In this document: piece by piece, positions 2,202 to 63,394 of the stretch
Position numbering within the stretch: the stretch's first letter is position 1
Layout of the letters: the number at the start of each line of letters is the position of its first letter
Assembly: GCA_017546245.1 (NCBI GenBank)
Contig: JAFYXI010000034.1
Coordinates: forward strand, 929 to 64,928
Direction: 5' to 3'
Origin: Clostridia bacterium
GTDB lineage: Bacteria; Bacillota; Clostridia; UBA1381; UBA9506
DNA length: 64,000 nt
Position numbers and translations under genes: made by a program
The notes under the pieces: generated by a model
Databases searched by the model: none
Told to the model about the DNA's origin: nothing
Seen by the model: the letters and a program-made list of their open reading frames with translations, nothing else

Positions 2202-3375
2202 AATAACAAATGAAAAAGGAGATGAGGTTTTGTTTAAAAAATATAAAATACCATATCTCGGACTGCTGCCGATTATTTTGATTTCGGCATTTTTGATTAA
2301 GCTTATGTTCGTGGCGGATGTTTCTTTAACCGGAATTTTAGGTGTTGTTTATTCTTGTATTGCATATTTTGTGTGGGGATTTGTGTATGCATATCTTTTA
2401 AATCCTGCTATGGTGTTTTTTGAAAGGCTTATCAGCTCAAAAAAAGACAGCTTAAGAGTAAAAAAATATAAAAGAGCAGGAATAATCGCGTTTTTATATC
2501 TTTTGATTGTGGGTTTAATAACTTTGTTTATTGTGGCGATTGTACCTACAATACGTGCAGGTATCAGTGATTTTATTGATAACATTCCCCGATATGCCGC
2601 AAATTTTGAAATATGGCTTGCCGACTTTACAAATTCGTTCGATCCGGCTATAACCCAGATGGTTGAGCAGTATGCGCACAGTATTTTTGAAACACTTTAT
2701 AATTGGCTTACCGGTGTTATGGATATATCATCTATCGGAGATGCAGTATCATCTGCAGTCAGCGTTTCAACTCAGGTTGTATTAAGAGCGGTGTTCGGCA
2801 TTGTGGTTTCGATTTATTATTTATACAGCAAAGACGGACTTGTTGAAGAAATTAAAAAGCTGTGCAGGGCACTGTTTTCTGAAAAAACTGCAAACGCAAT
2901 TTATAGAAGCGGCCGCAAGATAAATGAGATTTTTCAAAAGTTTATTGTCGGCAGACTTTTGCAGTCTCTGATAATGTTTTTCTTGGGATTAGTCGTGCTT
3001 ATTCCGCTCAGAGTTCCGCTTGCACCGCTTATCGCAATAATAATCGGTGTAACGAATATGATTCCGTATTTCGGCCCTTGGTTAGGTGCAATTCCGTGTG
3101 TTCTTCTTGCGTTGTTTATCGGAGGAGTGATACCTGCGGTAATAACGGTTTTATTTGCTGTGGGGGTTCAGATTTTAGATAACTTAATTATAGGACCGAA
3201 AATTATGTCATCTCAGGTAGGCATAAGTCCGCTTTTGGTTATTGCAGGTGTTACAATAGGCGGAAAGTTTGGCGGCGTTTTAGGAATGTTTTTGGGTGTT
3301 CCGCTGGTTGCTGTATTAAAAATGGTATTCTATGATAAATTCATAGAAAATAGGCTTGAAGAAAAAAATATTTGA
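2188..3375 (+). CDS. AI-2E (PerM/YtvI-like) family membrane transporter
   Basis: Multi-TM ORF of about 380-395 aa with the AI-2E-like C-terminal pattern (NMIPYFGPWLG...GVPL). The start is uncertain. A TTG at 2230 follows a GGAG RBS. Confidence 0.7.
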   Translation: MRHHKITNEKGDEVLFKKYKIPYLGLLPIILISAFLIKLMFVADVSLTGILGVVYSCIAYFVWGFVYAYLLNPAMVFFERLISSKKDSLRVKKYKRAGIIAFLYLLIVGLITLFIVAIVPTIRAGISDFIDNIPRYAANFEIWLADFTNSFDPAITQMVEQYAHSIFETLYNWLTGVMDISSIGDAVSSAVSVSTQVVLRAVFGIVVSIYYLYSKDGLVEEIKKLCRALFSEKTANAIYRSGRKINEIFQKFIVGRLLQSLIMFFLGLVVLIPLRVPLAPLIAIIIGVTNMIPYFGPWLGAIPCVLLALFIGGVIPAVITVLFAVGVQILDNLIIGPKIMSSQVGISPLLVIAGVTIGGKFGGVLGMFLGVPLVAVLKMVFYDKFIENRLEEKNI

Positions 3376-4103: not shown

Positions 4104-6335
4104 ATTACACAGAAAGAAAAAGTTTTAAATTTTTTAGAAGAGGCGGCGCTTGTTCCGCTTTTGTTTGATGAATTGGTAACGGTTTTGGGTGTTCCTGAAA
4201 ACGAGACCGATGAATTAGCTGACATTTTAGAAGAACTGATGCGTGAAGGACTTGTTATTAAAACCAAGAAAAAACGCTTCGGTGCGGCAATAAAGCTTGG
4301 ATATGTAAAGGGTAAATTTATAGGTACAGAGCGCGGCTTTGGTTTTGTTGAAAGAGCGGGCGAAGAGGATTTGTTTATTCCTCCTGACAGTACAAAAGGA
4401 GCTATGCACGGCGATTTGGTGCTTGCTAAAATAACCTCACAGGCAACTGAAAATAAAAGGCAGGAGGGGACGGTTGAGGTAGTATTAGAACGCGCAAAAA
4501 CTGTACTTGTAGGCACATTTGAAAAGTATAAAGCATCGGGGTTTGTTGTGCTTGATGACAAGCGTATAGGTGTAGATTTGTTTATACCTGAAAATGAAAC
4601 ATTGGGCGCAAAACACGGCGATAAAGTTGTTGCCGAGATAGTTCGGATTGGTACAGGCAGAAATCCTGAAGGAAAGATTACAGAGGTTTTAGGTAATCGC
4701 CTAGATGTAGGTGTCGATGTTTTGGCAATAATAAGACAACACGGAATTGGCGAGAATTTTCCTGCAAAGGTTTTAAAAGAAGCAAAAGAAGTAAGCTCGG
4801 TATCCGTTTCGGATGAAGCGGAAAACAGGGCAGATTTTAAAGACCGTCTTATTTTTACCATTGACGGCGAAGATGCAAAAGACTTAGACGATGCCATCGA
4901 GATAGAAAAACTTTCAAATGGTAATTATCGTCTGGGTGTTCACATTGCAGATGTAGGACATTATGTGCCGCGCGGCAGTATGCTCGATAAAGAGGCATTT
5001 AACCGAGGTACGAGCGTCTATTTGGTTGACAGGGTAATCCCTATGCTGCCCGTTGAACTGTCTAACGGAATCTGTAGCTTGTCAGAGGGTAAAGAACGTC
5101 TGGCTCTTTCTGTTATTATGGAAATTGACCATAGCGGAAAGGTTTTAACGCACGAAATTTTAAAGAGTGTTATCTGCTCTAAAGCAAGAATGACATATAA
5201 CAATGTTACTGCTATTTTAAATGGCGATAAAGAGCTTTCTGCCAAGTATTCGTTTTTGCTTGACAGCATTTTTATGATGCGCGAGCTTAAAGATATTTTG
5301 CGTAAAAAACGAATGGCAAGAGGAAGTATAGACTTTGATTTTCCTGAAGCGAAAATAAAGCTTGATGAAAACGGAAAGCCGATTGCTATTGAAAAATATG
5401 AGCATTCAGAATCGAATCACATAATTGAAGAATTTATGCTCGTATGTAACGAAACGGTAGCAGAAGATATGTTTTTCAGGGAAATGCCGTTTGTATATCG
5501 TGTGCACGAAGTACCGACAGAAGAAAAAATAAAAGACTTTGCCGAGTTTGCTGCGGCCTTTGGCTATTCAATAAAAAGAACGCAGGGCAAAATTCATCCT
5601 AAGGAGTTTCAAAAACTGTTAGGAGAGATAAAAGGAACACGCGAAGAACGAATCATAAGCACGGTAATGCTGCGTTCGTTAATGAAAGCACAATATTCTG
5701 CTGAAAATATGGGACATTTTGGTTTGGCGGCTAAATATTATTGCCACTTTACTTCGCCAATAAGAAGGTATCCTGACCTTGTAATTCACAGAATTATAGC
5801 AGATGTGATTTCGTCAAAAGAAGCGAACTCGGAAGAATTGATGCGTTTTGTAATTTCGGCAGCGGCACAGTCGAGCGAACGTGAGCTTAGTGCTATGGAG
5901 GCAGAGCGAGATACAGATGATTTAAAAAAAGCCGAATATATGTCAGAACGGCTGGGAGAGGTCTTTGACGGAGTTGTTTCATCGGTTACGTCGTTCGGAA
6001 TGTTTGTTGAGCTTGATAATACAATAGAGGGCTTAGTGCGGATGACGGACTTGGATGACGATTATTATATTTTCGACGAGAAAAAGAGAATTTTAATAGG
6101 CGAGCATACGCACAGAATTTATCAGATAGGAGATTTGGTATCGGTTCAGGTTGCCCGTGCAGATAAAGAAAGCCGACGCATTGATTTTGTGTTGTATGAT
6201 GAAAATAACGAGGGCGGTATTTTATATAAAAAATATTTGCTGTCTAAAAAAAGCACAAACAAAAAAACGAAACCGGCAAGGAAAAAAGCACCTGAAAAAA
6301 GATATTTAAAAAAGAAAAAGCGCAAAAGAAAATAA
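4104..6335 (+). CDS. rnr: Ribonuclease R
   Basis: It has an RNB catalytic domain (FTIDGEDAKDLDDAI, HFGLA...YCHFTSPIRRYPDL), a C-terminal S1 domain and a Lys-rich tail. The start was placed at ATT 4104, 8 nt after the SD AAGGAGGTG. The track ORF start at 4014 spans the secG terminator. Confidence 0.8.
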   Translation: MTQKEKVLNFLEEAALVPLLFDELVTVLGVPENETDELADILEELMREGLVIKTKKKRFGAAIKLGYVKGKFIGTERGFGFVERAGEEDLFIPPDSTKGAMHGDLVLAKITSQATENKRQEGTVEVVLERAKTVLVGTFEKYKASGFVVLDDKRIGVDLFIPENETLGAKHGDKVVAEIVRIGTGRNPEGKITEVLGNRLDVGVDVLAIIRQHGIGENFPAKVLKEAKEVSSVSVSDEAENRADFKDRLIFTIDGEDAKDLDDAIEIEKLSNGNYRLGVHIADVGHYVPRGSMLDKEAFNRGTSVYLVDRVIPMLPVELSNGICSLSEGKERLALSVIMEIDHSGKVLTHEILKSVICSKARMTYNNVTAILNGDKELSAKYSFLLDSIFMMRELKDILRKKRMARGSIDFDFPEAKIKLDENGKPIAIEKYEHSESNHIIEEFMLVCNETVAEDMFFREMPFVYRVHEVPTEEKIKDFAEFAAAFGYSIKRTQGKIHPKEFQKLLGEIKGTREERIISTVMLRSLMKAQYSAENMGHFGLAAKYYCHFTSPIRRYPDLVIHRIIADVISSKEANSEELMRFVISAAAQSSERELSAMEAERDTDDLKKAEYMSERLGEVFDGVVSSVTSFGMFVELDNTIEGLVRMTDLDDDYYIFDEKKRILIGEHTHRIYQIGDLVSVQVARADKESRRIDFVLYDENNEGGILYKKYLLSKKSTNKKTKPARKKAPEKRYLKKKKRKRK

Positions 6336-10935: not shown

Positions 10936-13900
10936 ATGATGAAAAAAGCATTAGCTGTATGCTTGGCTTTCTGCATCGTGTTGTCTGTATTGATTCCGAT
11001 GGGTATTGCTGTCAAAGCCGAAACACAAATGTCGCAGGCAGAAACGATACTTTATGAAGATTTTGAAACTGCAACTTTGGCAGATAGCATTTATGACGAA
11101 AACGGAAATTATAACACTAATAATGATATAGGTGGTTTTAATGGCTGGCAGGACGGAACGAAAAACAAAAATCCGTTAAAGCCATATGACACCAACAGGG
11201 TTGTTAATGTTGCAAAAATCGTAGATGAAGGAGAAAATAAAGCCGGCAGTTTTATTTATACAAAAGCCGGCTCAGAATCTAACGATAATTTGCAGTATTA
11301 TATCAAAAAATCAACTCTCAAGGCTGTCAGCACAGGAATTGTTGTTGTTAAAATGCGTGTAAAGCCTACTGCACAGGCAGGAATGCTGCTTGTAAATTTA
11401 AGTGGTGCAGCAGCACAGGCATCTCCATACATAACCTTTTGGCTTGATAAAAAACGCATGGCAGGCGATATTGTTTCTACTGCTAATGGTTCACTTACCA
11501 CCATGCAAGAAAATATGTGGACTGATTATGAGATACATATTAATTTTGACAGCCGTACAGCAAAAATATATGCAGGCGAAGAGGAAATTAAAAATACAAA
11601 AACAGCCCTTCCTTCTTCGCTTACGCAAATAACTTCCGTTTCTATCGGCTTGCATAGAACTCAGGGAGCATGGGCAGCAGGACATGGTTGGTTGGTTGAT
11701 AACATCGAGGTTGTTGCAATTCCAAGGTCTGACGCAGTTATAGTTCCTACCGACGAGCTTCTTACAAATAAAGCAAAACTTATATTTAACAACGAACCTG
11801 AAAGTCTAAGTACAGAAAACATAAGCATTAAAGCAGAAAGCGGAGTTGTTAGGGCATCTGCTGTCGAGGCGGTATCGGGTGATGGTAAATCATTTGTTGT
11901 AACCTTTCCTAAAAATCTAACGCCTCAGACAGATTATACGGTAATTTTAGACGGAATTACCGATAAATACGGAGGCAGTCTGACAAATAAAGAAATTACA
12001 TATACTACCCCGGCAACGGGAAATATTTACTATGTTTCTCCGAACGGAAACGATAAAAATGCAGGAACAAAAGCTGCTCCGTGGAAAACTGCATACCATG
12101 CTGCTAAAAAAGCTGCAGCAGGCGATACGGTAATTTTTGAAGACGGAATATACAGAGAAACTGAATATACTGTCGTCGAAAATAACGGTACAGCAGGCAA
12201 GCCTATTACATTTAAGGCACAAAATCCTCACAAGGCAATAATTTTTTACGGTGAAAACTGCAGAACAAGACAAAAATTCAGAATTCACGACAAGCAATAT
12301 ATAAATATAAGAGATTTGTACTTTACTCAAGAGAGCACGTCACTTTATGAAGACGGTGCTACGCTTGAAACCGCAGCAACTTCTGATATATTTATTAACG
12401 TAATCAGATCGAGCTACTGTGAGGTTACAGGCAATAAAATTGTAAAGGCATTTGAAGAGGGCATAAAGGGGTATTGTTCAAACTCAATTACCATTGCAAA
12501 CAACGAGATATACGATATGAATCATGAGGGTATTGACTTGTTTGCGGTAATAAATCCTGATGTTTGCGCAAATAAGGTTATAAACTTCGGCCGTGATGCC
12601 TTTATGATAAAGGGTAATTCGGCAAACTGCCGTATTTATAATAACTATGCCCATAACGATAAAATGGTAACAACCGGTACAGCCTTTGATATAGGCGGTT
12701 CATCTGACGGAACAAGCCCTATATGTACCAAAGAGAATATTGGATTCGAAAACCATAACAGTATATTTTATAATAATGTTGTGTATGCAATTGATATTGA
12801 CGGAACACCGAGTATAGGTGCAGGCTTCAGCTTTTTGGGAGCTAAAGACTGTCATTGCTATAATAATACGGTTGCAGGAACACGATATGGCATACGTTTT
12901 CAAGTTCCTACAGACAGCGACTGGCAGTGGTGGCCAAACTCTGTAAATCCGACAATTAAAAACAACATTTTAGCAAATATTCAATACACATACAGTGATA
13001 ACAGCGGTGATATAAAGCCTAATCCTGAAAATGTTATAAGAGATTACAATTTGTTTTATAATTGCAGCTTTAACAGCGAATACAAAGCAACTGACGAGCC
13101 GAACAGTATAGTTTTAAGCTCATCAGATGATTTGTTTGCAGCTTATGGCACAGATTTCAGAATAAAGCTTAATTCAAAAGCTAAAGGGGTAGGCACAGCA
13201 CTTGCTGACACCTATCCCGGATTTATAGGATATGCCGAGGAAGACAGAACAAGCCCAAACGGCAGCTATTATAAAGACTTTGAATATGACCCGAATAGAG
13301 TTATAGATGTAAAAATTGATTTAATCGATTATAACGGCAATGAAAGAACGGCTTGGGATATTGGTGCATATGCAGCCGGTGACTGCATAAAAGAAATTTA
13401 TGCGTCGCAATATGATACCGTAAGCGGTTTGCCGGAGGGATATTCGTGGGAATATTCAACGCAATATACAGGTGAACAGATAATAACAGGAACAGATGCA
13501 AACGGCAGTCAGGCTAAATGTCTCCTTAAAGTAGGTACAAACGGTGTTTATGTTGCAGAAGATATTAAATATAAAAAAGCATACGACACCGCAGTTTTAG
13601 CTAACGGCATTGACGGCAAAACAACAGTTTTGCTTAAAATGACAGACCAAAGTACAAAAGAATTTGCTGTAAACTATGACCTTAATGCTAACAAATCCGG
13701 AGTTTATAAAGTTTTAGGAACTATCGACGGATTTAGCGAAAAAATTCCGGTTATAGTTACTGTGGCAGCCGAAGAAGAAAATAAAATTTTAGAAACCTAT
13801 AAAGATGCGCGTGTTATATTAGAAGACGGCACGTGGGTGGATACAAGCAAGCTTGGTTGCCAGTATCACGATGTAATCACAAGCAAAGCACTTGTGCATT

Positions 13901-54853: not shown

Positions 54854-54923
54854 ATTTTTTAACTGGGATATTCTTTATCTTCAGGGTTAACCTAATATCA
54901 TAAAAACCTTGGAGGTAAAACAA

Positions 54924-56174
54924 TTGCGCAAACCAATTTCACTAAAAAAGCGTTCGGTGATTTTTTTCTGTCTTTTTTTACTTTTATCGGCAGGAATCAC
55001 CGTTGATTGCTCTTTGCGGTATCCTGACTGCATAGATATATTTGAAGGCGAATTTTTAACAGACGACAATACCTCTTCAATTATTTTAGATATTCCTGCA
55101 TCAAACGAAGGTGTGCTGTTAGATGACGGAACAATATCGGGCGGCAGCTCAATACTGTCAGGCAGCTTTAATGCCGAGCTTAAGCTTTTCGGGATAATTC
55201 CCGTACGCACAATTCAGGTTGATGTTCACCCCAAAACTGAGCTTGTTCCCTGCGGCAATACCATAGGAATAAAAATTTTCACACAGGGACTTGTATGCGT
55301 AGGAACGTCTGAAATAAAAAGCACAGACGGCAAAATAACAAGTCCGACACTTGACTTTGACATACACGAAGGCGACATATTGCTTTCAGCAAACGGCACA
55401 CCGCTGGAAACAACAGAACAGTTGGCATCCATTGTAGAAAGCTCCTGCGGCAACATAATAAACTTTAAAATAGAACATGACAAAAAACAAATAATGCGTA
55501 AAATATCGCCCGTAAAAACACAAGACGGCTATAAGCTGGGACTTTGGGTGAGAGATTCTACCGCAGGCATTGGCACACTTACTTTTTATGATAATGAAAC
55601 AAAGCTTTTCGGTGCTTTAGGACATCCGATAGCTGACAGCGACACAGGAGCACTTATGCCCGTATCAAGCGGTACAATTTTAAACGCATCGGTGTTTGAC
55701 GTCAAAAAAGGCAGCCGAGGCGAACCGGGTGAGCTAAAAGGTGTTTTTTCAAATTCCGACGAATGTTTAGGATATATTAACAAAAACACCGAGCAAGGCA
55801 TTTACGGAAGCATCACACCTCATATGCTGCCGGAAACACACTCATCCATTCCCGTAGCATCAGGCAGTCAGGTCAAAGAGGGCGAAGCAACAATTCTGTC
55901 TAATGTAGACGGCAAAAACGTGCAGGAATTTTCTATCGAAATCCAGAAGATTATGCGCTATAATGCCAACGGCACAAAAGATATGGTTATTAAAATAACC
56001 GACCCTGCACTTTTAGAAAAAACAGGCGGTATAGTTCAGGGGATGAGCGGCAGCCCTATTATACAGGATGGAAAGCTAATCGGCGCAGTAACGCACGTTT
56101 TTGTTAATGATCCGACACGGGGTTATGGGATTTTTATTGAAAATATGCTGTCGGAGGCAGAGAAAATTAAATAA
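54924..56174 (+). CDS. spoIVB: Stage IV sporulation serine peptidase SpoIVB (S55)
   Basis: PDZ segment plus peptidase S55 blocks (GIGTLTFYD...[50 protein letters not shown]). TTG start at 54924, 5 nt after a GGAGGT RBS. Confidence 0.9.
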   Translation: MRKPISLKKRSVIFFCLFLLLSAGITVDCSLRYPDCIDIFEGEFLTDDNTSSIILDIPASNEGVLLDDGTISGGSSILSGSFNAELKLFGIIPVRTIQVDVHPKTELVPCGNTIGIKIFTQGLVCVGTSEIKSTDGKITSPTLDFDIHEGDILLSANGTPLETTEQLASIVESSCGNIINFKIEHDKKQIMRKISPVKTQDGYKLGLWVRDSTAGIGTLTFYDNETKLFGALGHPIADSDTGALMPVSSGTILNASVFDVKKGSRGEPGELKGVFSNSDECLGYINKNTEQGIYGSITPHMLPETHSSIPVASGSQVKEGEATILSNVDGKNVQEFSIEIQKIMRYNANGTKDMVIKITDPALLEKTGGIVQGMSGSPIIQDGKLIGAVTHVFVNDPTRGYGIFIENMLSEAEKIK

Positions 56175-56176
56175 TA

Positions 56177-56216
56177 AAAATGCTCGTCTACACTATATAG
56201 GCGGGCATTTTATTTT
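56177..56216 (+). terminator. Intrinsic terminator after spoIVB
   Basis: Stem AATGCTCG...CGGGCATT (one G-U pair) followed by TTATTTT. Confidence 0.5.
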
Positions 56217-56237
56217 ATGAAAACAGAGCGAATCGCA

Positions 56238-57005
56238 TCATCTTCTATAATTTGATGGCGAAACACCTTGTATCTTTTTAAATTTATTTGAAAAATAATA
56301 CATATTTTCAAAGCCACATCGTTCAGCAATTTCCGAAATGCTATATGATGTACCGATAAGTAGCTTTCTGGCTTTTTTGATTCGTTGTTCGGTGATATAT
56401 TGTAATACCGAAAGATTCAATTCGCGGCGAAACTTAAAATTGAGTGTGGATGCGTTTGTGCCTATACTGTGACATATTTGTTCAATAAGTATTTTGCCTG
56501 ATAAATTTTCATCTATATAAGCTATAGCAGAATTGACAAGGGTGTCGGAACAAGTTGTTTCTTCATAATTATTTCCCTTTGGATGGCTCTGAGAATAAAT
56601 CTGGAACAGTATGTCGAGAAGCAGATGCTCGCGGTATCCGGTAGATATTGCATCATCTCTTGAAAGTAAATTTTCCAGGTTCGTAATATTTGAAACAAAT
56701 CTCTGTTTGTCTGTAAAATTTATTTTTCCAAATGGTATTTCAATTTTATAGGGACAAACATTATTGCCCGTAAATTTTACATAAACGAACTCTATAGGCT
56801 CAATTACATTACGATGGTAATGAATGTAGTCTGGGAGAATATAACAGTCACCCGCAGATACCTTTTCTTTAATCCCATTTGTTTCTATAACAAAACTGCC
56901 TTTTTTGAGATAAAAAAGAGCGTGGGTTGGTTGATATCCGTCAGTTACATGGAATTCACTCCTGGTTGAATAGTTGGATTCTATAATTTTAAACGGAAAT
57001 TGCAT
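56238..57005 (-). CDS. AraC-family transcriptional regulator (cassette 1)
   Basis: 255 aa with an N-terminal cupin-like sensor and a C-terminal double HTH (IAERCGFENMYYFSNKFKKIQGVSPSNYR). Confidence 0.85.
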   Translation of the reverse strand: MQFPFKIIESNYSTRSEFHVTDGYQPTHALFYLKKGSFVIETNGIKEKVSAGDCYILPDYIHYHRNVIEPIEFVYVKFTGNNVCPYKIEIPFGKINFTDKQRFVSNITNLENLLSRDDAISTGYREHLLLDILFQIYSQSHPKGNNYEETTCSDTLVNSAIAYIDENLSGKILIEQICHSIGTNASTLNFKFRRELNLSVLQYITEQRIKKARKLLIGTSYSISEIAERCGFENMYYFSNKFKKIQGVSPSNYRR

Positions 57006-57108
57006 AAAAAAACCTCTGTTTATTGTTGGATTTTATAAGTTTTATTTTAGCATATTCTATTTTAATAGTCAATTGTGAGATGTATAATAGAGGAAAAGGA
57101 GTGGTTAT

Positions 57109-58455
57109 ATGAAACAGGTTACTTTAAATCTACAAAAGGAATATGAGTGCGATGTGCTTGTTTGCGGCGGAGGTGTAAGCGGTTTTGCGGCAGCGGTATC
57201 AGCTGCAAGATGCGGAGCGAAGACAATGCTTATTGAATCCGGAGGCTTTCTTGGCGGAACAGCAACAAAAGGTCTTGTAGCACCTTTTATGACTTGCTAT
57301 GATGCTGAAGGGAAAGAAAGAATTATAAAAGGTCTGTATTCAGAACTTGAAAAAAGACTTCTTGAAAAAAACGGAGCTGTTGCGCCTGAAAAATGCTCAG
57401 GTGGTGATAGTTACAGCGGATATCGCACAAAAGGGCATATCGGTGTAATGCCTTTTGATACAGAAACTATAAAAATTATTTTTGAACAAATGTGCCTTGA
57501 GGCAGGAGTGGAACTTTTGTATCATACCAATCTGTTAGGTTGTGAAAGAGAAGAAAAAAATATCTCAAAAGTATATGCGGCAGATAACAATGACATTATC
57601 TCCATAAGCGCAAAAATGTTTATTGATACTACGGGAACGGCGACTCTGGCTTATAAGGCAGGCGCTCAGACAATGCGCGGAAATGATGACGGAATACTGC
57701 AGACGGCATCTATGTTCTTTGTAATTTCAGGAGTGGATAAACAGATTTTGGACGAGTATATGAACAAGAACGAAGAAATGCGTGCAAGATATTTTATGGA
57801 TATTATCGAGCAGGGTAAAAAAGATGGTACATTCCCTTGTGGTACAAGGAAAATAAGAATATTTAAAAATCCCAATGGTACTTTTACGGTAAATATGGCA
57901 CAAATCGATGAGCAAATCAACGAACTGGATAACAGGGAAATTACAAAGGGCGAAATAAATCAGCGACTGCAAATTCAGAAACTTATTGAATTTATGCGTA
58001 AAAACATTCCGGGACTTGAGAATGTTGAACTTTTTGCAACAGCTTCAGACCTTGGTATAAGGGAAAGCAGACGCATTGTAGGCAAAACCCTTTTCTGCCT
58101 TGAAGATATTAAACAGGCTAAAAAATTTGACGACCGTATTGCGGTTTGCGCAAACTCTATAGATATGCATCAGAAAGACAGAGTGAGTTATACGGCTCAT
58201 ACCGGTAAAAACTATTATATCCCGCTTTCCTGTCTTATTTCAAATAGTGTAGATAACCTGCTTACTGCAGGAAAAAGTCTGTCGGCTGATAAATATGCTT
58301 TTGCTGCTGTAAGAGTTATGCCGCCCTGTATTGCAATGGGCGAAGCTGCAGGTATAACTGCAGCACTTGCGGCACAAAAAAGCGTTGCAGCAGGCGATGT
58401 CCCGCATGAAGAAGTGCAGAAAATACTTATTGATAACGGTGCATTTCTAGGATAA
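57109..58455 (+). CDS. FAD-dependent oxidoreductase (FAD_oxidored-like; cassette 1)
   Basis: 448 aa with an N-terminal dinucleotide-binding motif [30 protein letters not shown]. Confidence 0.75.
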
Positions 58456-58463
58456 CAGAAATT

Positions 58464-58484
58464 TGTTGTCCCCTATTGACAACA
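58464..58484. repeat. 21-nt palindromic junction motif, copy 1
   Basis: TGTTGTC-CCCTATT-GACAACA, identical to 61366-61386. It lies 8 nt after the oxidoreductase stop and immediately before the spoIVB remnant. Confidence 0.8.
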
Positions 58485-58619
58485 GTGGTGTCAGGCTCGC
58501 CGATAATTCAAAATGGCCGAATTGTGGGAGCTGTGACACACGTATTTGTGAATGATCCAACACGTGGATACGGCATATTTATTGAGAATATGTTAGCTGA
58601 GGCAGGAAAAATCAAATAG
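58485..58619 (+). pseudogene. Displaced spoIVB 3'-end remnant 1 (last about 42 codons, no 5' part)
   Basis: Manual translation gives (VV)[42 protein letters not shown]. It aligns with the C-terminus of intact SpoIVB, starting at the catalytic GMSGSP motif. Confidence 0.85.
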
Positions 58620-58621
58620 GA

Positions 58622-58662
58622 AAGGGACTGTAAAAAAATCTTACTTTTTTTACAGTCCCTTA
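58622..58662. terminator. Bidirectional terminator after remnant 1 / AraC gene 2
   Basis: Palindrome AAGGGACTGTAAAAAAA...TTTTTTTACAGTCCCTT. Confidence 0.65.
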
Positions 58663-58667
58663 ATTTA

Positions 58668-59378
58668 TTAAAGTGCAGAATTTTGTCTGAATTTAAGCGG
58701 GGAAATCCCGACTGCTTTCTTAAAAGAATTACTGAAATAATAAACATCATTATAGCCACAGTTTTCACCAATTTGACTTATTGAAAGGTTTGTGTTTACC
58801 AAAAGCTCTTTTGCTTTACTGATGCGAAAATCAGTTATACAATTTATTGGCGTTATACCATAATGCGACTTGAATTTGTGTATAAGTGTCTGTATTGAAT
58901 AACCTGTTATTTGAGCCAGTGTTTTAAGATTTATATTTTCCGAAAAATGTTCACTTATATATTCATACGCTGGAGCAATGTCGTTTTCTTTTGTGATTTT
59001 TTGCTTTGAAGTTAGGAGTATATCATTTACAAAATGTTCAATGATACGAAGCGGCGTCTTTTTTAAAATGGCATTTTCTATGTGCAATACTGTGTTTCTA
59101 AGCCTATTGATGTCAGTCTCATCATATTCCAATATTTCTGTATCGCAGATCGAATGAGAAAACCTAATGATTATATATGATATGGGCTTTATTATTCTTT
59201 TACGAAATGACACACCTTTTCTGAAAACGACAGGGTTAAAAGGAAGAATTTTTTGAGATGTGTTTTTTGTGGTGTATTCATATTCACCGCACAATGTAAT
59301 AATAAGACTGGTCGATCTGTGTGTGCCGCATTCAATTTCAAACTTTTCTTTGTATGAAATATCACAATGTAATACCAT
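58668..59378 (-). CDS. AraC-family transcriptional regulator (cassette 2)
   Basis: 236 aa with a C-terminal AraC double HTH (IGENCGYNDVYYFSNSFKKAVGISPLKFR). Confidence 0.85.
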   Translation of the reverse strand: MVLHCDISYKEKFEIECGTHRSTSLIITLCGEYEYTTKNTSQKILPFNPVVFRKGVSFRKRIIKPISYIIIRFSHSICDTEILEYDETDINRLRNTVLHIENAILKKTPLRIIEHFVNDILLTSKQKITKENDIAPAYEYISEHFSENINLKTLAQITGYSIQTLIHKFKSHYGITPINCITDFRISKAKELLVNTNLSISQIGENCGYNDVYYFSNSFKKAVGISPLKFRQNSAL

Positions 59379-59516
59379 ATATTATCTCCTTTAATATTTT
59401 ATAAAAAATCTAAAATTCTCTCTATTTATATAGTGTATAATTTATTATATAATATAAAATATAAAAACACAAGAGATTGGGTGATAATTTTGAAAAGGGA
59501 TGTTAAATCAAAAGAA

Positions 59517-61334
59517 ATGAGTTACGATGTTGTAGTAGTTGGTGGCGGACTTTCGGGAATGTGTGCAGCTATCGCCGCTGCAAGGCACGGAGCAAAAACA
59601 GCACTTATCCATGCTCGGCCCGTATTCGGTGGAAATGCCTCAAGCGAAATAAGAATGCATATATGCGGTGCATCTGCAAATATGGCAAAACCAATGCTTG
59701 AAGAAAGCGGGATTTTATATGAATTGTTGCTCGAAAATAAAGCATTCAATGATTATTTTAATTACAGTATTTGGGATATGATTTTGTATAAAAGAATAAG
59801 AGAACAGGACAATCTAAGCTTTTATCTCAATACTGTTATGGACGATTGCACTGTGAAAGACAATATTATAACGAGCATCATGGCTTATCAGCAAACAACT
59901 GAAACACGATATAAAATAACAGGTAAAATTTTTGTTGATGCAACAGGGAATTCCACACTTGGATATCTTGCAGGTGCAGAGTATAAAACAGGCAGTGAAT
60001 CAAAAAAAGAATTTAATGAGCCCCACGCACCAACTAAATCGAATAATAACACAATGGGAAACACTCTTTTATTTAAAGCTGTTGACAGGGGAACATCAAT
60101 TCATTTTAAACGCCCCGATTTCGCATATACTTTTACAGAAGAACAGTTAAAATACCGTACACACGGTAAGGTCAGCGAACAGACAAAAAAATATTTAGAC
60201 GAAGAAGAAATACGAATTACATCTGTTGGCTCTGCTACAATAGATACCGGTTACTGGTGGATAGAGCTGTGCGGTAATACAGATGATATTATCGATGAAT
60301 ATGAAGAAATTCGTGATGAACTGGTTTGTTGTATATACGGTATTTGGGACCATATAAAAAATGGCGGTAATCATGGCGCTGAAAGCTATGATTTAGAGTG
60401 GGTTGGAATGCTACCGGGAATGCGTGAAAGCAGGCGTTTGGTGGGTGATTATATGCTCAATGAAAATGATATTCTGGAAAACAGACAATTTGATGATGCT
60501 GTTTGTTATGGTGGTTGGCCTATGGATATACATACCCCCAACGGTCTTTATGATTTTGACAAAAAACCATCAGAAGTTTACTTTTTTGACGGGACATATA
60601 CAATTCCATATCGTTCGTATTACTCAAAAAATATAGAGAATCTTATGATGGCAGGAAGGAACATAAGTGCAACAAAAATGGCAATGGGTTCTACTCGCGT
60701 TATGGGAACATGCGCTGTTGGTGGTCAGGCAGTTGGAACAGCGGCAGCTATGTGTATAGATAATAACTGCCTTCCGCATGAAATTTTAAATCATATACAT
60801 AAATTACAACAAATTCTCCTAAAAGATGATTGCTATATCCCAAATGTTGCAAACTGTGATAAGTATGATAAGGCAAGAGAGGCAACCGTAAAAGCATCTT
60901 CCGAAAGAGAAGGTTTTGAAGCAGCAAATGTTGTAAGTGGCATAACAAGACAAACCGAAAGCAACACGAATTTATGGGTGTCTGATGGTGTGGCAAAAGG
61001 CGGAGAAACTCTGAGCTTTGAGTTTGGAAAGGAGTATAGTGTTTCGCAAATTAGGCTTGTTTTTGACACGAACTTTAACTATTCCATAAAGCAGACACAA
61101 AATTCGAAAAGACAAAAACAACAAAGAAAAGGAGTTCCGTCCGAGCTCGTAAAAGATTACAGCGTTGAATTATGGAAAAACAATTCGGTTGTTTTTCGAA
61201 AAAATATTTGCGAAAATCATCAACGTTTGAATGTTATTGATTTCCCCTATATTTCTTGTGATAAGCTTACAATCACCATAACAGAAACCAATGGAGCAAA
61301 AGATGCACATGTTTATGAAGTGAGAATATATTGA
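59517..61334 (+). CDS. FAD-dependent oxidoreductase with a C-terminal F5/8 type C (discoidin)-like domain (cassette 2)
   Basis: YDVVVVGGGLSGMCAAIAAARHGAKTALI dinucleotide motif. The C-terminal roughly 150 aa are discoidin-like (SVSQIRLVFDTNF...AHVYEVRIY). The start is uncertain: ATG 59517 or TTG 59490. The track start at 59433 overlaps a TGTATAAT -10-like box. Confidence 0.7.
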   Translation: MSYDVVVVGGGLSGMCAAIAAARHGAKTALIHARPVFGGNASSEIRMHICGASANMAKPMLEESGILYELLLENKAFNDYFNYSIWDMILYKRIREQDNLSFYLNTVMDDCTVKDNIITSIMAYQQTTETRYKITGKIFVDATGNSTLGYLAGAEYKTGSESKKEFNEPHAPTKSNNNTMGNTLLFKAVDRGTSIHFKRPDFAYTFTEEQLKYRTHGKVSEQTKKYLDEEEIRITSVGSATIDTGYWWIELCGNTDDIIDEYEEIRDELVCCIYGIWDHIKNGGNHGAESYDLEWVGMLPGMRESRRLVGDYMLNENDILENRQFDDAVCYGGWPMDIHTPNGLYDFDKKPSEVYFFDGTYTIPYRSYYSKNIENLMMAGRNISATKMAMGSTRVMGTCAVGGQAVGTAAAMCIDNNCLPHEILNHIHKLQQILLKDDCYIPNVANCDKYDKAREATVKASSEREGFEAANVVSGITRQTESNTNLWVSDGVAKGGETLSFEFGKEYSVSQIRLVFDTNFNYSIKQTQNSKRQKQQRKGVPSELVKDYSVELWKNNSVVFRKNICENHQRLNVIDFPYISCDKLTITITETNGAKDAHVYEVRIY

Positions 61335-61365
61335 TTTTTAGTTAAAAACTAACATTTAGTAAAAG

Positions 61366-61386
61366 TGTTGTCCCCTATTGACAACA
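61366..61386. repeat. 21-nt palindromic junction motif, copy 2
   Basis: TGTTGTCCCCTATTGACAACA, identical to 58464-58484 and again directly before a spoIVB remnant. Confidence 0.8.
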
Positions 61387-61512
61387 GTCGTGAGCGGTTC
61401 ACCAATAATACAGAACGGCAAAATCGTCGGAGCTGTAACTCACGTATTTGTGAATGATCCAACACGTGGATACGGCATATTTATTGAGAATATGCTCAAA
61501 GAAGTCAGCTGA
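61387..61512 (+). pseudogene. Displaced spoIVB 3'-end remnant 2
   Basis: Manual translation gives (VV)[39 protein letters not shown]. It shares a 54-nt perfectly identical block with remnant 1 (61441-61494 = 58539-58592). Confidence 0.85.
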
Positions 61513-61858: not shown

Positions 61859-62550
61859 ATGAATATACGAATCTTAGAGTTATTTCCGGTGCAAAAGCAG
61901 CTACAGGGCTTACAGTTATAATAGATGTATTCCGTGCAATGACAGTAGAAGCTTATATCATAAATAACGACGCATCAGAGCTTATTCCTATGGGCGATAT
62001 TAACGAGGCTTATTCATACAAGATGTCTAAACCTGAAACCGTACTTATAGGCGAACGCGGCGGTGCAAAATGTCAGGGATTTGATTATGGAAACTATCCT
62101 TCTGCGATAAAAAATGTAAATTTTTCAGGAAAAACTGTTATACATACAACAAGTGCAGGAACGCAAGGGATTATAAATGCACATAATGCAACTGAAATTA
62201 TTACAGGAAGTTTTGTAAATGCAAAGGCTATTGTTAAATACATAAAGAAAAGAAATCCTGACGAAGTTTCGCTGGTATGTATGGGACTTGAGGGAAAGAA
62301 AACTACTACAGAAGACAGATTTTGTGCTGAATACATAAAAAGTCTTTTAGAGGATGAACCTATAAAGATGAGCACGATTATTAACGAATGTAAAAAAACG
62401 GACGGAGCTAAATTCTTTAAGCCTAAAAACAATTTAATTTTTCCTACAGAGGACTTTTGGCTGTGTTTAGAAGCGAATGTATTTGACTTTGTTCTGTCTG
62501 TTGAAAAAGGAGACGACGGATTATTTCGCACAATAAGAAAGGATGTTTAA
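61859..62550 (+). pseudogene. 2-phosphosulfolactate phosphatase (ComB) family gene with an apparent N-terminal frameshift
   Basis: ATG 61859 gives MNIRILELFPVQKQLQGLQL*. The conserved ComB N-terminal block SGAKAATGLTVIIDVFRAMTVEA continues in another frame into the 61939-62550 ORF (LIGERGG, HTTSAGTQ, LVCMG). Confidence 0.6.
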
Positions 62551-62554
62551 TGTC

Positions 62555-63394
62555 ATGGAACTTGCAATTCAGTTTTATGATGCATGGAAATAAAGAGGAA
62601 TAGACGGTGGTATAAAGACTATAAAAGAAGCAGGATTTGATGCAATTGATATGTCTTATTATTACGACGCTGCCGCTTGTTTTCTTGGTGAGGATTATAT
62701 TGAAAAAGCATACGAAGTTAAAAATGCGTTAAAAAAATACAAATTAAAATGCCGCCAGGCTCATGCTCCGATAGAGTGTTACTATTTAATGGCGCAAGAT
62801 AACACGTCCCCGGAATATGTCAGACTTAAGCGTGCAATAGAAAGTGCCGGCATTATAGGCATAGAGCATATCGTAATTGTAGGTATCGAGGTTCCGGCAC
62901 CCCACGCATCATATCTTAATATTAACTATAACTATGATTTTTACAAAAGCTTAGAGCCGCTATGCAAACAATATGGTGTTATAATTGCTGTAGAAAATCT
63001 GAGAAAATCGTTTACTTATCCCGATCTTATGAATGAAATAATCAGAAAGCTTGACTCTCCTTGGTTTAAGGTTCTTGTGGATGTAGGTCATACATGGGTA
63101 AGAGCAGATATGCAGCCGGGAGAATATATCAGAGGTCTTGATCCTAATGTCATATGCGGTTTACACGTTCACGATACGCACGGAATCAGGAAGGGTGTAG
63201 ATGAACATCTTTTACCCTGGATGGCAGAAATTGATTTTGATGATTTAATGAAAGCACTTAAAGAGGTTGGGTATGACGGAGACGTTACTCTTGAAATCAG
63301 ACCATTTATTGAAAAATATGCATCGAAAGGTCTTCTTGAACCTGCCCTTAAGTTTGCTGAGGCTGTAGGACGAAAACTTGTATCTATGTATTGA
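62555..63394 (+). pseudogene. Xylose-isomerase-like TIM-barrel (sugar phosphate isomerase/epimerase) gene with an in-frame TAA
   Basis: ATG 62555 gives MELAIQFYDAWK, then TAA (62591-62593), then RGIDGGIKTIKEAGFDAIDMSYYYD... in the same frame as the 62651-63394 ORF. TIM-barrel blocks: AVENL, VDVGH, HVHD. Confidence 0.55.

Follow-up and report, generated by a model that had tools for sequence, protein, structure and literature searches.

An intact spoIVB gene followed by two displaced copies of its own 3′ end, each introduced by the same 21-nt palindrome, raises the question of what the palindrome is and how gene ends came to lie behind unrelated genes. The locus is part of the window, by which the whole analyzed stretch of 64,000 nt from the genome of a Clostridia bacterium is meant. 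A sequence-only reading of this DNA had proposed that the palindrome is a recombination site and that a 54-nt stretch, identical in the two displaced tails, may be its att-like core. The analysis presented here supports the first proposal in modified form and places the putative crossover elsewhere.

Results

Two cassettes are stacked behind an intact spoIVB gene

The array contains the following features (positions in the window); the att names anticipate the assignment proposed below.

54909–56174, plus strand: live spoIVB, 421 aa, with a full-length Peptidase_S55 domain (Pfam PF05580, E 1.5e-90)
56019–56070, plus strand: putative attB-like site in live spoIVB, consisting of B half (56019–56043), central TG (56044–56045, in the ATG codon before the catalytic serine) and B′ half
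56175–58463: cargo of cassette 1, an AraC regulator (56238–57005, minus strand) and a FAD-dependent oxidoreductase (57109–58455, plus strand)
58464–58488, plus strand: predicted P half-site 1 (21-nt motif plus 4 nt), with central TG at 58489–58490; a putative attR-type junction together with R1
58488–58619, plus strand: displaced tail R1 (GTG...TAG), an in-frame spoIVB tail copy
58539–58592, plus strand: 54-nt block in R1, identical (54/54) to 61441–61494 in R2
58622–58661: bidirectional terminator hairpin, perfect over 17 bp, between R1 and the convergent AraC gene of cassette 2
58620–61365: cargo of cassette 2, assigned by Pfam, an AraC regulator (58668–59378, minus strand) and a longer FAD-dependent oxidoreductase (59517–61334, plus strand)
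61366–61390, plus strand: predicted P half-site 2 (21-nt motif plus 4 nt), with central TG at 61391–61392; a putative attR-type junction together with R2
61390–61512, plus strand: displaced tail R2 (GTG...TGA), an in-frame spoIVB tail copy

R1 and R2 are copies of the last 43 codons of spoIVB, each placed directly after the motif. The two cassettes share the same design, and their paired proteins are 25–33% identical by tblastn; the Pfam matches of cassette 1 are HTH_18/HTH_AraC and FAD_oxidored (E 1.1e-108). Neither cassette encodes a recombinase gene, the AraC regulator and the FAD oxidoreductase being the only cargo, and each is flanked by the attB-like or an attR-type junction on one side and an attR-type junction on the other. 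No second copy of either cassette was found. A hairpin weaker than the 58622–58661 terminator follows live spoIVB at 56177–56211. Immediately behind the array (61859–63394), the ORFs of a ComB-like phosphatase and a TIM-barrel gene start late, at 61939 and 62651.

The motif precedes spoIVB tails in many Clostridia

The 23-mer TGTTGTCCCCTATTGACAACAGT, which comprises the motif and the two bases after it, is present exactly twice in the window (58464–58486 and 61366–61388, plus strand), each time directly before a spoIVB tail, as had been read from the sequence. No copy arose in 100 shuffles, and no further copy was detected in the whole 2.03-Mb genome. Within the family of the window's organism (55 genomes), the motif with at most two changes was found in 10 other genomes belonging to four genera, and a spoIVB tail followed at once in 10/10. 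The scan was widened to one genome per prokaryote species (185,579 species genomes, 596 Gb). Among the matches listed, approximately 105 of 125 fell in Clostridia with a tail or a decayed tail behind the motif, including Oscillospiraceae, Lachnospiraceae, Congzhengia, Ruminococcus, Flavonifractor and others; the non-Clostridia matches listed had no tail, were scattered over other phyla and were about as frequent as chance would give for 17 fixed bases in 596 Gb. A reverse search from spoIVB tails showed that the motif or a worn copy of it precedes essentially every remnant.

The cargo between live spoIVB and the motif varied widely and comprised an AraC regulator with a glycyl-radical enzyme and its activase, an AraC regulator with a FAD oxidoreductase, DUF4417 with a ParB-like protein and a phosphoesterase, as well as transporters and dehydrogenases. 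The suggested search for the palindrome beside other cargo thus returned equivalent junctions in more than 100 other genomes (among the matches listed), and its absence from such junctions, which was to count against a recombination site, was not what was found. In GC-rich hosts the tail is GC-rich from base 1 while the motif and its A-rich leader are unchanged, so the boundary between element and tail is sharp. Tails are saturated at synonymous sites and adapted to host GC, and the motif is conserved.

Worn remnants were noted at L023 (~11541–11672), L143 (4515 and 7914), L083 (4996), L034 (4406), L066 (2427) and L142 (5346); some are 5′-truncated tails without the motif and others are motifs with 3–6 changes before decaying tails. 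Old junctions erode, and intact remnants are therefore either young or maintained.

Glycyl-radical activase genes of different cassettes end in ...IVVPY followed by a TGA stop that lies inside the motif (L017 12355–13200, L022 17526–18344 and L023 17512–18381). The motif was considered as the 3′ end of this activase gene, and this was rejected because it is equally conserved behind unrelated cargo and behind recombinase genes; at the activase genes, cargo reading frames simply run into the att half-site.

A module of ~230 nt just upstream of the motif, 80–90% conserved and apparently non-coding, is common to cassettes with different cargo. It was located in L035 at ~4930–5158 in the spoIVB-plus orientation (original coordinates ~2842–3070) and is also present in L067, L078, L129, L058, L041, L084, L094, L071, L055 and others, with a terminator hairpin at its start and a short variable patch within. 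A small ORF on the minus strand might lie within it, or a region for accessory binding. An Rfam search gave no known RNA family near threshold in the window region or in the relatives' module.

Tandem large serine recombinase genes adjoin the motif in relatives

When ~850 ORFs from 117 loci were clustered, members of one cluster lay directly before the motif at 16 loci, with as many as three genes of ~530–570 aa in tandem. The Pfam domains of its members, Resolvase, Recombinase and Zn_ribbon_recom, identify them as large serine recombinases; all three copies are visible in 8 loci. No tyrosine recombinase or HUH gene recurs among these ORFs. Tyrosine, serine and HUH enzymes had all been put forward as possible partners of the palindrome, and only the serine type is borne out.

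The element of genome G055 is 72 kb long and encodes ParA, a VirD4-type coupling protein, a VirB4-like ATPase, TrbL, a cell-wall hydrolase and RepA_N, a gene set that marks it as an integrative conjugative element (ICE). In the ICEs, the last recombinase gene of the triplet stops ~10 nt before the motif.

The serine-recombinase triplet is absent from the window's genome. Its sole large serine recombinase (G000:C61:78545-81808, L144; 487 aa) is encoded on another contig, shares ~24% identity with the triplet enzymes and lacks a nearby motif; it probably serves a different element as its integrase. The ICE left end is likewise absent from this genome, and across the window's order (239 genomes) it gave one genuine match, matches with one mismatch being at background level. 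With neither the triplet nor an ICE end in their genome, the window's cassettes are therefore stranded unless an element visits.

ICE insertions split spoIVB at the codon before the catalytic serine

In each of six ICE-bearing genomes, five with the triplet plus one identified afterwards, the break in spoIVB falls at the codon preceding the catalytic serine, and the assembly contained no intact spoIVB copy. The 5′ part ends in ...GGnATnGTnCAGGGn-ATG (pattern ...CAGGGn-ATG). After the ATG it runs into 25 nt, (G/T)(T/G)AGTG..TTATAATAGGGACAACA, which end in GGGACAACA, and a stop follows soon after. The spoIVB tail of these genomes sits behind the motif at another place in the assembly, in G055 on the same contig and strand at a distance of 72 kb. 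The split loci are G055:C1:106714-179984 (L156, L162–L166) and those of G056–G059 and G138 (L153–L161, L168).

An attP rebuilt from both element ends reads TGTTGTCCCATATTGACATCACTCG-TG-GTAGTGAGTTATAATAGGGACAACA (25 + 2 + 25 nt). Its P half begins with TGTTGTCCC and extends over 25 nt to the TG, and its P′ half extends over 25 nt from the TG to end in GGGACAACA. The ends were taken from the attL and attR of five genomes; their outermost 9 nt form exact inverted repeats at equal distance from the TG, and 16/25 positions are symmetric; the attL of the sixth genome agrees with the rebuilt site. The inverted GGGACAACA at the left end of the ICE is thus the partner of the motif, each lying 25 nt from the TG, and the ICE left end and the tail have nothing in common except the TG.

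The bases around the junction separate live genes from remnants. Live spoIVB reads ...GGnGGnATnGTnCAGGGn ATG at the junction in 44/44 genes; the junction codon starts with A in all 44 and with G, C or T in 100/109 remnants, and the central TG is kept in 44/44 live genes and 107/109 remnants. The left boundary was also visible in two loci that share a cassette (L054 and L104): upstream of the ATG, in the gene body, they agree at 20–41/60 nt per window of comparison, and from the junction ATG on at 48–60/60 (80–100%) through the tail and 2.2 kb of cargo.

Both ends of the cassettes appear to map to the same TG, in the Met codon before the catalytic serine (56044–56045 in the live gene, 58489–58490 and 61391–61392 at the tails). 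This predicted cleavage position rests on the symmetry and the base patterns. The motif would then be the P half-site of a serine-integrase attP, and as the outer half of that site it would make each motif + TG + tail in the window an attR-type junction (P.TG.B′); live spoIVB would carry the attB-like counterpart (B.TG.tail). Compared with what is expected of large-serine-recombinase sites, an attP of ~50 bp with imperfect dyad symmetry around a central dinucleotide was found, as was the same central dinucleotide in attP and attB without long identity, and recombinase genes adjoin the site in relatives though not in the window's own cassettes. As in pseudo-SCC elements and CIMEs, the window cassettes are recombinase-less DNA between att-type sites, and the L054/L104 pair is one cassette in different hosts bounded exactly by such sites.

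The hairpin is not conserved

Among 109 non-redundant junctions, 59 (54%) have GACATCA as the right arm; the stem is then broken, the left arm being constant and no compensating change being seen. The perfect stem folds at −5.1 kcal/mol (z-score −2.7) vs −1.4 kcal/mol (z-score −0.2) for the GACATCA version, and the P′ half-site at the ICE left end contains the outer arm only, with no internal palindrome. Judged from these sequences, the hairpin is incidental. The palindrome therefore stands as a predicted serine-integrase half-site and falls as a hairpin unit.

These data bear on the idea that the motif is a tyrosine-recombinase core with 7-bp arms and a 7-bp overlap, or a single-stranded hairpin recognized by an HUH enzyme. 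Its 7-7-7 geometry does resemble lambda-type cores, the perfect version folds better than shuffles, and the loop CCCTATT occurs once in live spoIVB too, at the S-P-I codons. However, the right arm varies without compensation in more than half of the junctions, whose fold is then no better than that of shuffles, the ICE left end lacks the palindrome, and the recurring enzymes are of the serine type. The loop sequence is absent from the target junction, and its occurrence in the live gene is a coincidence of codon choice, missing from most other live genes, which disposes of CCCTATT as an overlap between the two. We regard this explanation as extremely unlikely. An integron attC was rejected as well, the hairpin not being conserved and the associated enzymes being serine recombinases.

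It is equally hard to credit that the motif has been kept as a regulatory signal, either a promoter −35 box or a minus-strand terminator. A perfect TTGACA does lie in the motif after an A-rich tract, but no sigma-70 promoter makes use of it: neither copy has a −10 partner at 16–18 nt, and the nearest −10-like hexamer is ~20 nt off and varies with codon usage. The minus strand is flagged as a terminator-like hairpin, but the call is weak and relies on that unstable stem, which 54% of the junctions have lost, and a strong terminator already lies between R1 and the next gene. A regulatory role would also leave the obligatory link to spoIVB tails and serine recombinases unexplained.

The 54-nt block is a genome-specific patch downstream of the predicted crossover

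R1 and R2 were compared from their V codon (58488 and 61390). The first 51 nt differ at 15 positions, mostly synonymous, with one R/K change, and the next 54 nt are identical in 54/54 positions (58539–58592 = 61441–61494), with divergence resuming one base further on. Relative to the live gene, the block is changed at 9/54 positions and encodes the identical protein, all nine differences being therefore synonymous. These counts confirm the pattern described before, and the alignment showed that the identity is block-like, with sharp edges on both sides. The further suggestion that the block is the att-like core did not hold, because the block begins 51 nt downstream of the TG to which both cassette boundaries map.

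Identity of this length greatly exceeds what chance would give. An in-register identical run of at least 54 nt was present in 0.12% of 10,257 between-genome tail pairs (median run 11 nt) and in 15% of tail pairs within one array; of all within-array pairs, 44% exceed the between-genome 95th percentile. The best of ~150 other tails matched the block at 50/54, and a 31-mer at tail positions 74–104 was found only in R1 and R2. Switch points differ among arrays (positions 6, 12, 21, 39–51 and 60), and some identities pass the stop codon and continue beyond. The genome-specific block and the variable switch points argue for a patch of homologous gene conversion between R1 and R2, direct repeats 2.9 kb apart; of the two origins offered earlier for the abrupt switch, a conversion tract is thus favored and a crossover point is not, the predicted crossover being at the TG 51 nt upstream.

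Identical runs start preferentially at tail positions 39–51 in several arrays. This clustering could hint at a preferred switch region, and downstream conservation explains it equally well; it was attributed to conserved sequence beginning there because between-genome runs start there too.

Across the left edge of the block, R1 stays colinear with an outside haplotype, which suggests that R2 may have been the recipient of the conversion over at least the first 23 nt. The same observation weighs on a different history, in which one tail was duplicated, the block is identical in both copies by descent and the flanks were replaced later. Such a history would leave a common core between unlike flanks just as conversion would, and the genome-unique 31-mer is compatible with either. 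It would, however, require two independent sharp-edged replacements on both sides of the block, and it sits poorly with the 53-nt run over which R1 matches the haplotype of another genus across the left edge (tail positions 21–73) and with the resemblance of the 5′ part of R2 to the native type of its own genus. The two matches point to different origins of R1 and R2 outside the block, and we consider descent from a single tail very unlikely.

A broader alternative would dispense with site-specific recombination. Circular or linear DNA bearing a spoIVB tail could have been inserted by RecA in a Campbell-type event, the motif being an inherited edge of homology and the block a crossover mark. 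Tails do recombine homologously, mosaic blocks with variable switch points being common within arrays, and the window's genome is without a cognate recombinase. Against this, the right boundary is fixed to the base in more than 100 junctions and the left boundary lies at the same codon, whereas crossovers by homology would be spread over the whole of the conserved gene body. At the junction, ATG is invariable in live genes and GTG prevails in remnants, the motif is conserved while the tails are synonymously saturated and adapted to host GC, and one reciprocal crossover could not leave a patch with two sharp edges. Campbell-type insertion is therefore judged unlikely, if less so than the preceding alternatives.

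Taken together, we think it probable that the motif is the outer P half-site of a ~52-bp att site, that conjugative elements with three tandem large serine recombinases integrate in spoIVB at the TG, that the blocks in the window are passenger cassettes and that the 54-nt identity reflects gene conversion. Observations that carry this reading are the linkage of motif and tail, the adjacency of recombinase genes, the split genes, the symmetry of attP, cassette boundaries that are fixed on the left and on the right, and the restriction of the block to this genome.

The three tails probably differ in origin

Compared with the closest genome of the same genus, the spoIVB body is on average ~82% identical per 60 nt, with 55/60 in the last stretch before the junction and 40/60 right after it. 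The live tails of the two genomes agree at 78/108 positions, and R2 agrees with the remnant tail of that genome at 91/108, close to the divergence of the gene body (~82%). The first 74 nt of R1 match tail haplotypes that circulate widely across genera, including the 53-nt exact run, which is shared with a remnant in G042, from another genus of the family.

From these values we infer that the spoIVB body up to 56043 is host DNA and that the last 43 codons of the live gene may have been imported with cassette 1. R1 would have come in with cassette 2, to be pushed out later by cassette 1, and R2 would be the original tail of the genus, except for the converted patch at 61441–61494. The proposed order, with R2 native, R1 arriving with cassette 2 and the current live tail with cassette 1, fits the same-genus comparison. 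New arrivals would stack next to the gene, which would make the outermost tail the oldest.

A route for cassettes without recombinase genes can be proposed. In a donor, an ICE would integrate at the live gene and excise via a more distal attR, picking up tail, cargo and motif. In a new host it would integrate and exit through the internal attR, leaving the cassette behind a repaired gene and displacing the host tail. Each cassette would thus arrive with a tail on its left, the new tail becoming live and the previous one shifting downstream. This appears to be the most economical route, requiring only standard serine-integrase reactions; like the order of arrival and the direction of conversion, it goes beyond the direct observations. 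No composite of ICE and cassette was present in the five ICE genomes examined, each of which had a single motif, and the mobilization route is therefore put forward as a hypothesis. The outcome for the target differs: a full ICE breaks spoIVB, whereas the tail at the left of each cassette leaves the gene whole.

Discussion

The reading of a half-site with gene conversion explains the local pattern, namely a conserved palindrome plus mosaic pseudo-tails. On this reading, metabolic genes across Clostridia, among them those for glycyl-radical enzymes, FAD oxidoreductases and transporters, have a common way in at a single conserved codon of a sporulation protease. The reading also defines a predicted natural 52-bp attP and ~50-bp attB for a serine-integrase triplet. 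Such pairs are raw material for genome-engineering landing pads. Recombinase-less cassettes far outnumber the elements that presumably move them, and the displaced gene ends evolve in concert. In the literature searched, no link of spoIVB to serine recombinases or to ICE insertion was found, and the system, though widespread, appears to be unpublished.

Full elements interrupt a gene essential for sporulation, and ICE-bearing hosts would either be unable to sporulate or have spoIVB rebuilt by excision. We advance a wider interpretation tentatively, with somewhat more doubt than confidence: spoIVB in gut and rumen Clostridia may serve as an integron-like collecting platform based on serine integrases, in which ICEs with three serine recombinases break the gene at the catalytic-serine codon and shuttle recombinase-less metabolic cassettes between genera via alternative attR sites. 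Each cassette would bring along a spare tail that works, and gene conversion, together with an occasional return to live use, would keep the stored tails translatable. If this were true, full elements would act as on/off switches of sporulation. In Bacillus, spoIVB is a forespore gene, and for that reason a skin-like switch at spoIVB would be unusual.

Several known systems share parts of this design. SCC/SCCmec composite islands and pseudo-SCC elements lie at the 3′ end of rlmH (orfX) and are moved by the CcrAB serine recombinases. They resemble the spoIVB arrays in having serine recombinases act at a conserved gene end, tandem cassettes separated by repeated att sites, some cassettes without a recombinase that rely on enzymes in trans, and a target gene that stays functional. 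The SCC repeat is ~15–18 bp long and lies at the very end of the gene, whereas the predicted spoIVB crossover is 43 codons from the stop, beside the catalytic serine, so that every cassette must carry a 130-nt working gene tail; moreover, full elements at spoIVB break the gene.

CIMEs, which accrete in tandem with ICESt1/ICESt3 at the 3′ end of fda, are likewise recombinase-less, att-flanked DNA, gained or left when an ICE uses an alternative att site. They depend on tyrosine integrases at fda rather than predicted serine integrases at spoIVB, where the mobilization of cassettes is itself hypothetical.

The closest counterpart of the full elements is a set of streptococcal ICEs with triplet serine integrases at one end, which insert into and disrupt mutT, traG or hsdM (2016, PMC4701971). 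Both have large serine recombinase genes, three in tandem, at one end of the conjugative element and oriented like the target, and both disrupt a coding gene, with few bases shared between the sites. The elements described here differ in their target, spoIVB in Clostridia, and in that this site has gathered many recombinase-less cassettes with a spare gene tail, a feature absent from the account of the streptococcal ICEs (PMC4701971).

Integrons offer the comparison for the arrays as a whole. The spoIVB arrays appear to be without an IntI tyrosine integrase, attI and a common promoter, the associated enzymes being serine recombinases; their cassettes are 2–7 kb long, with their own regulators and terminators, and the signal is a predicted serine-integrase half-site, not a folded attC. 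What the two have in common is an ordered array of cargo at one site, with each unit ending in a conserved recombination signal.
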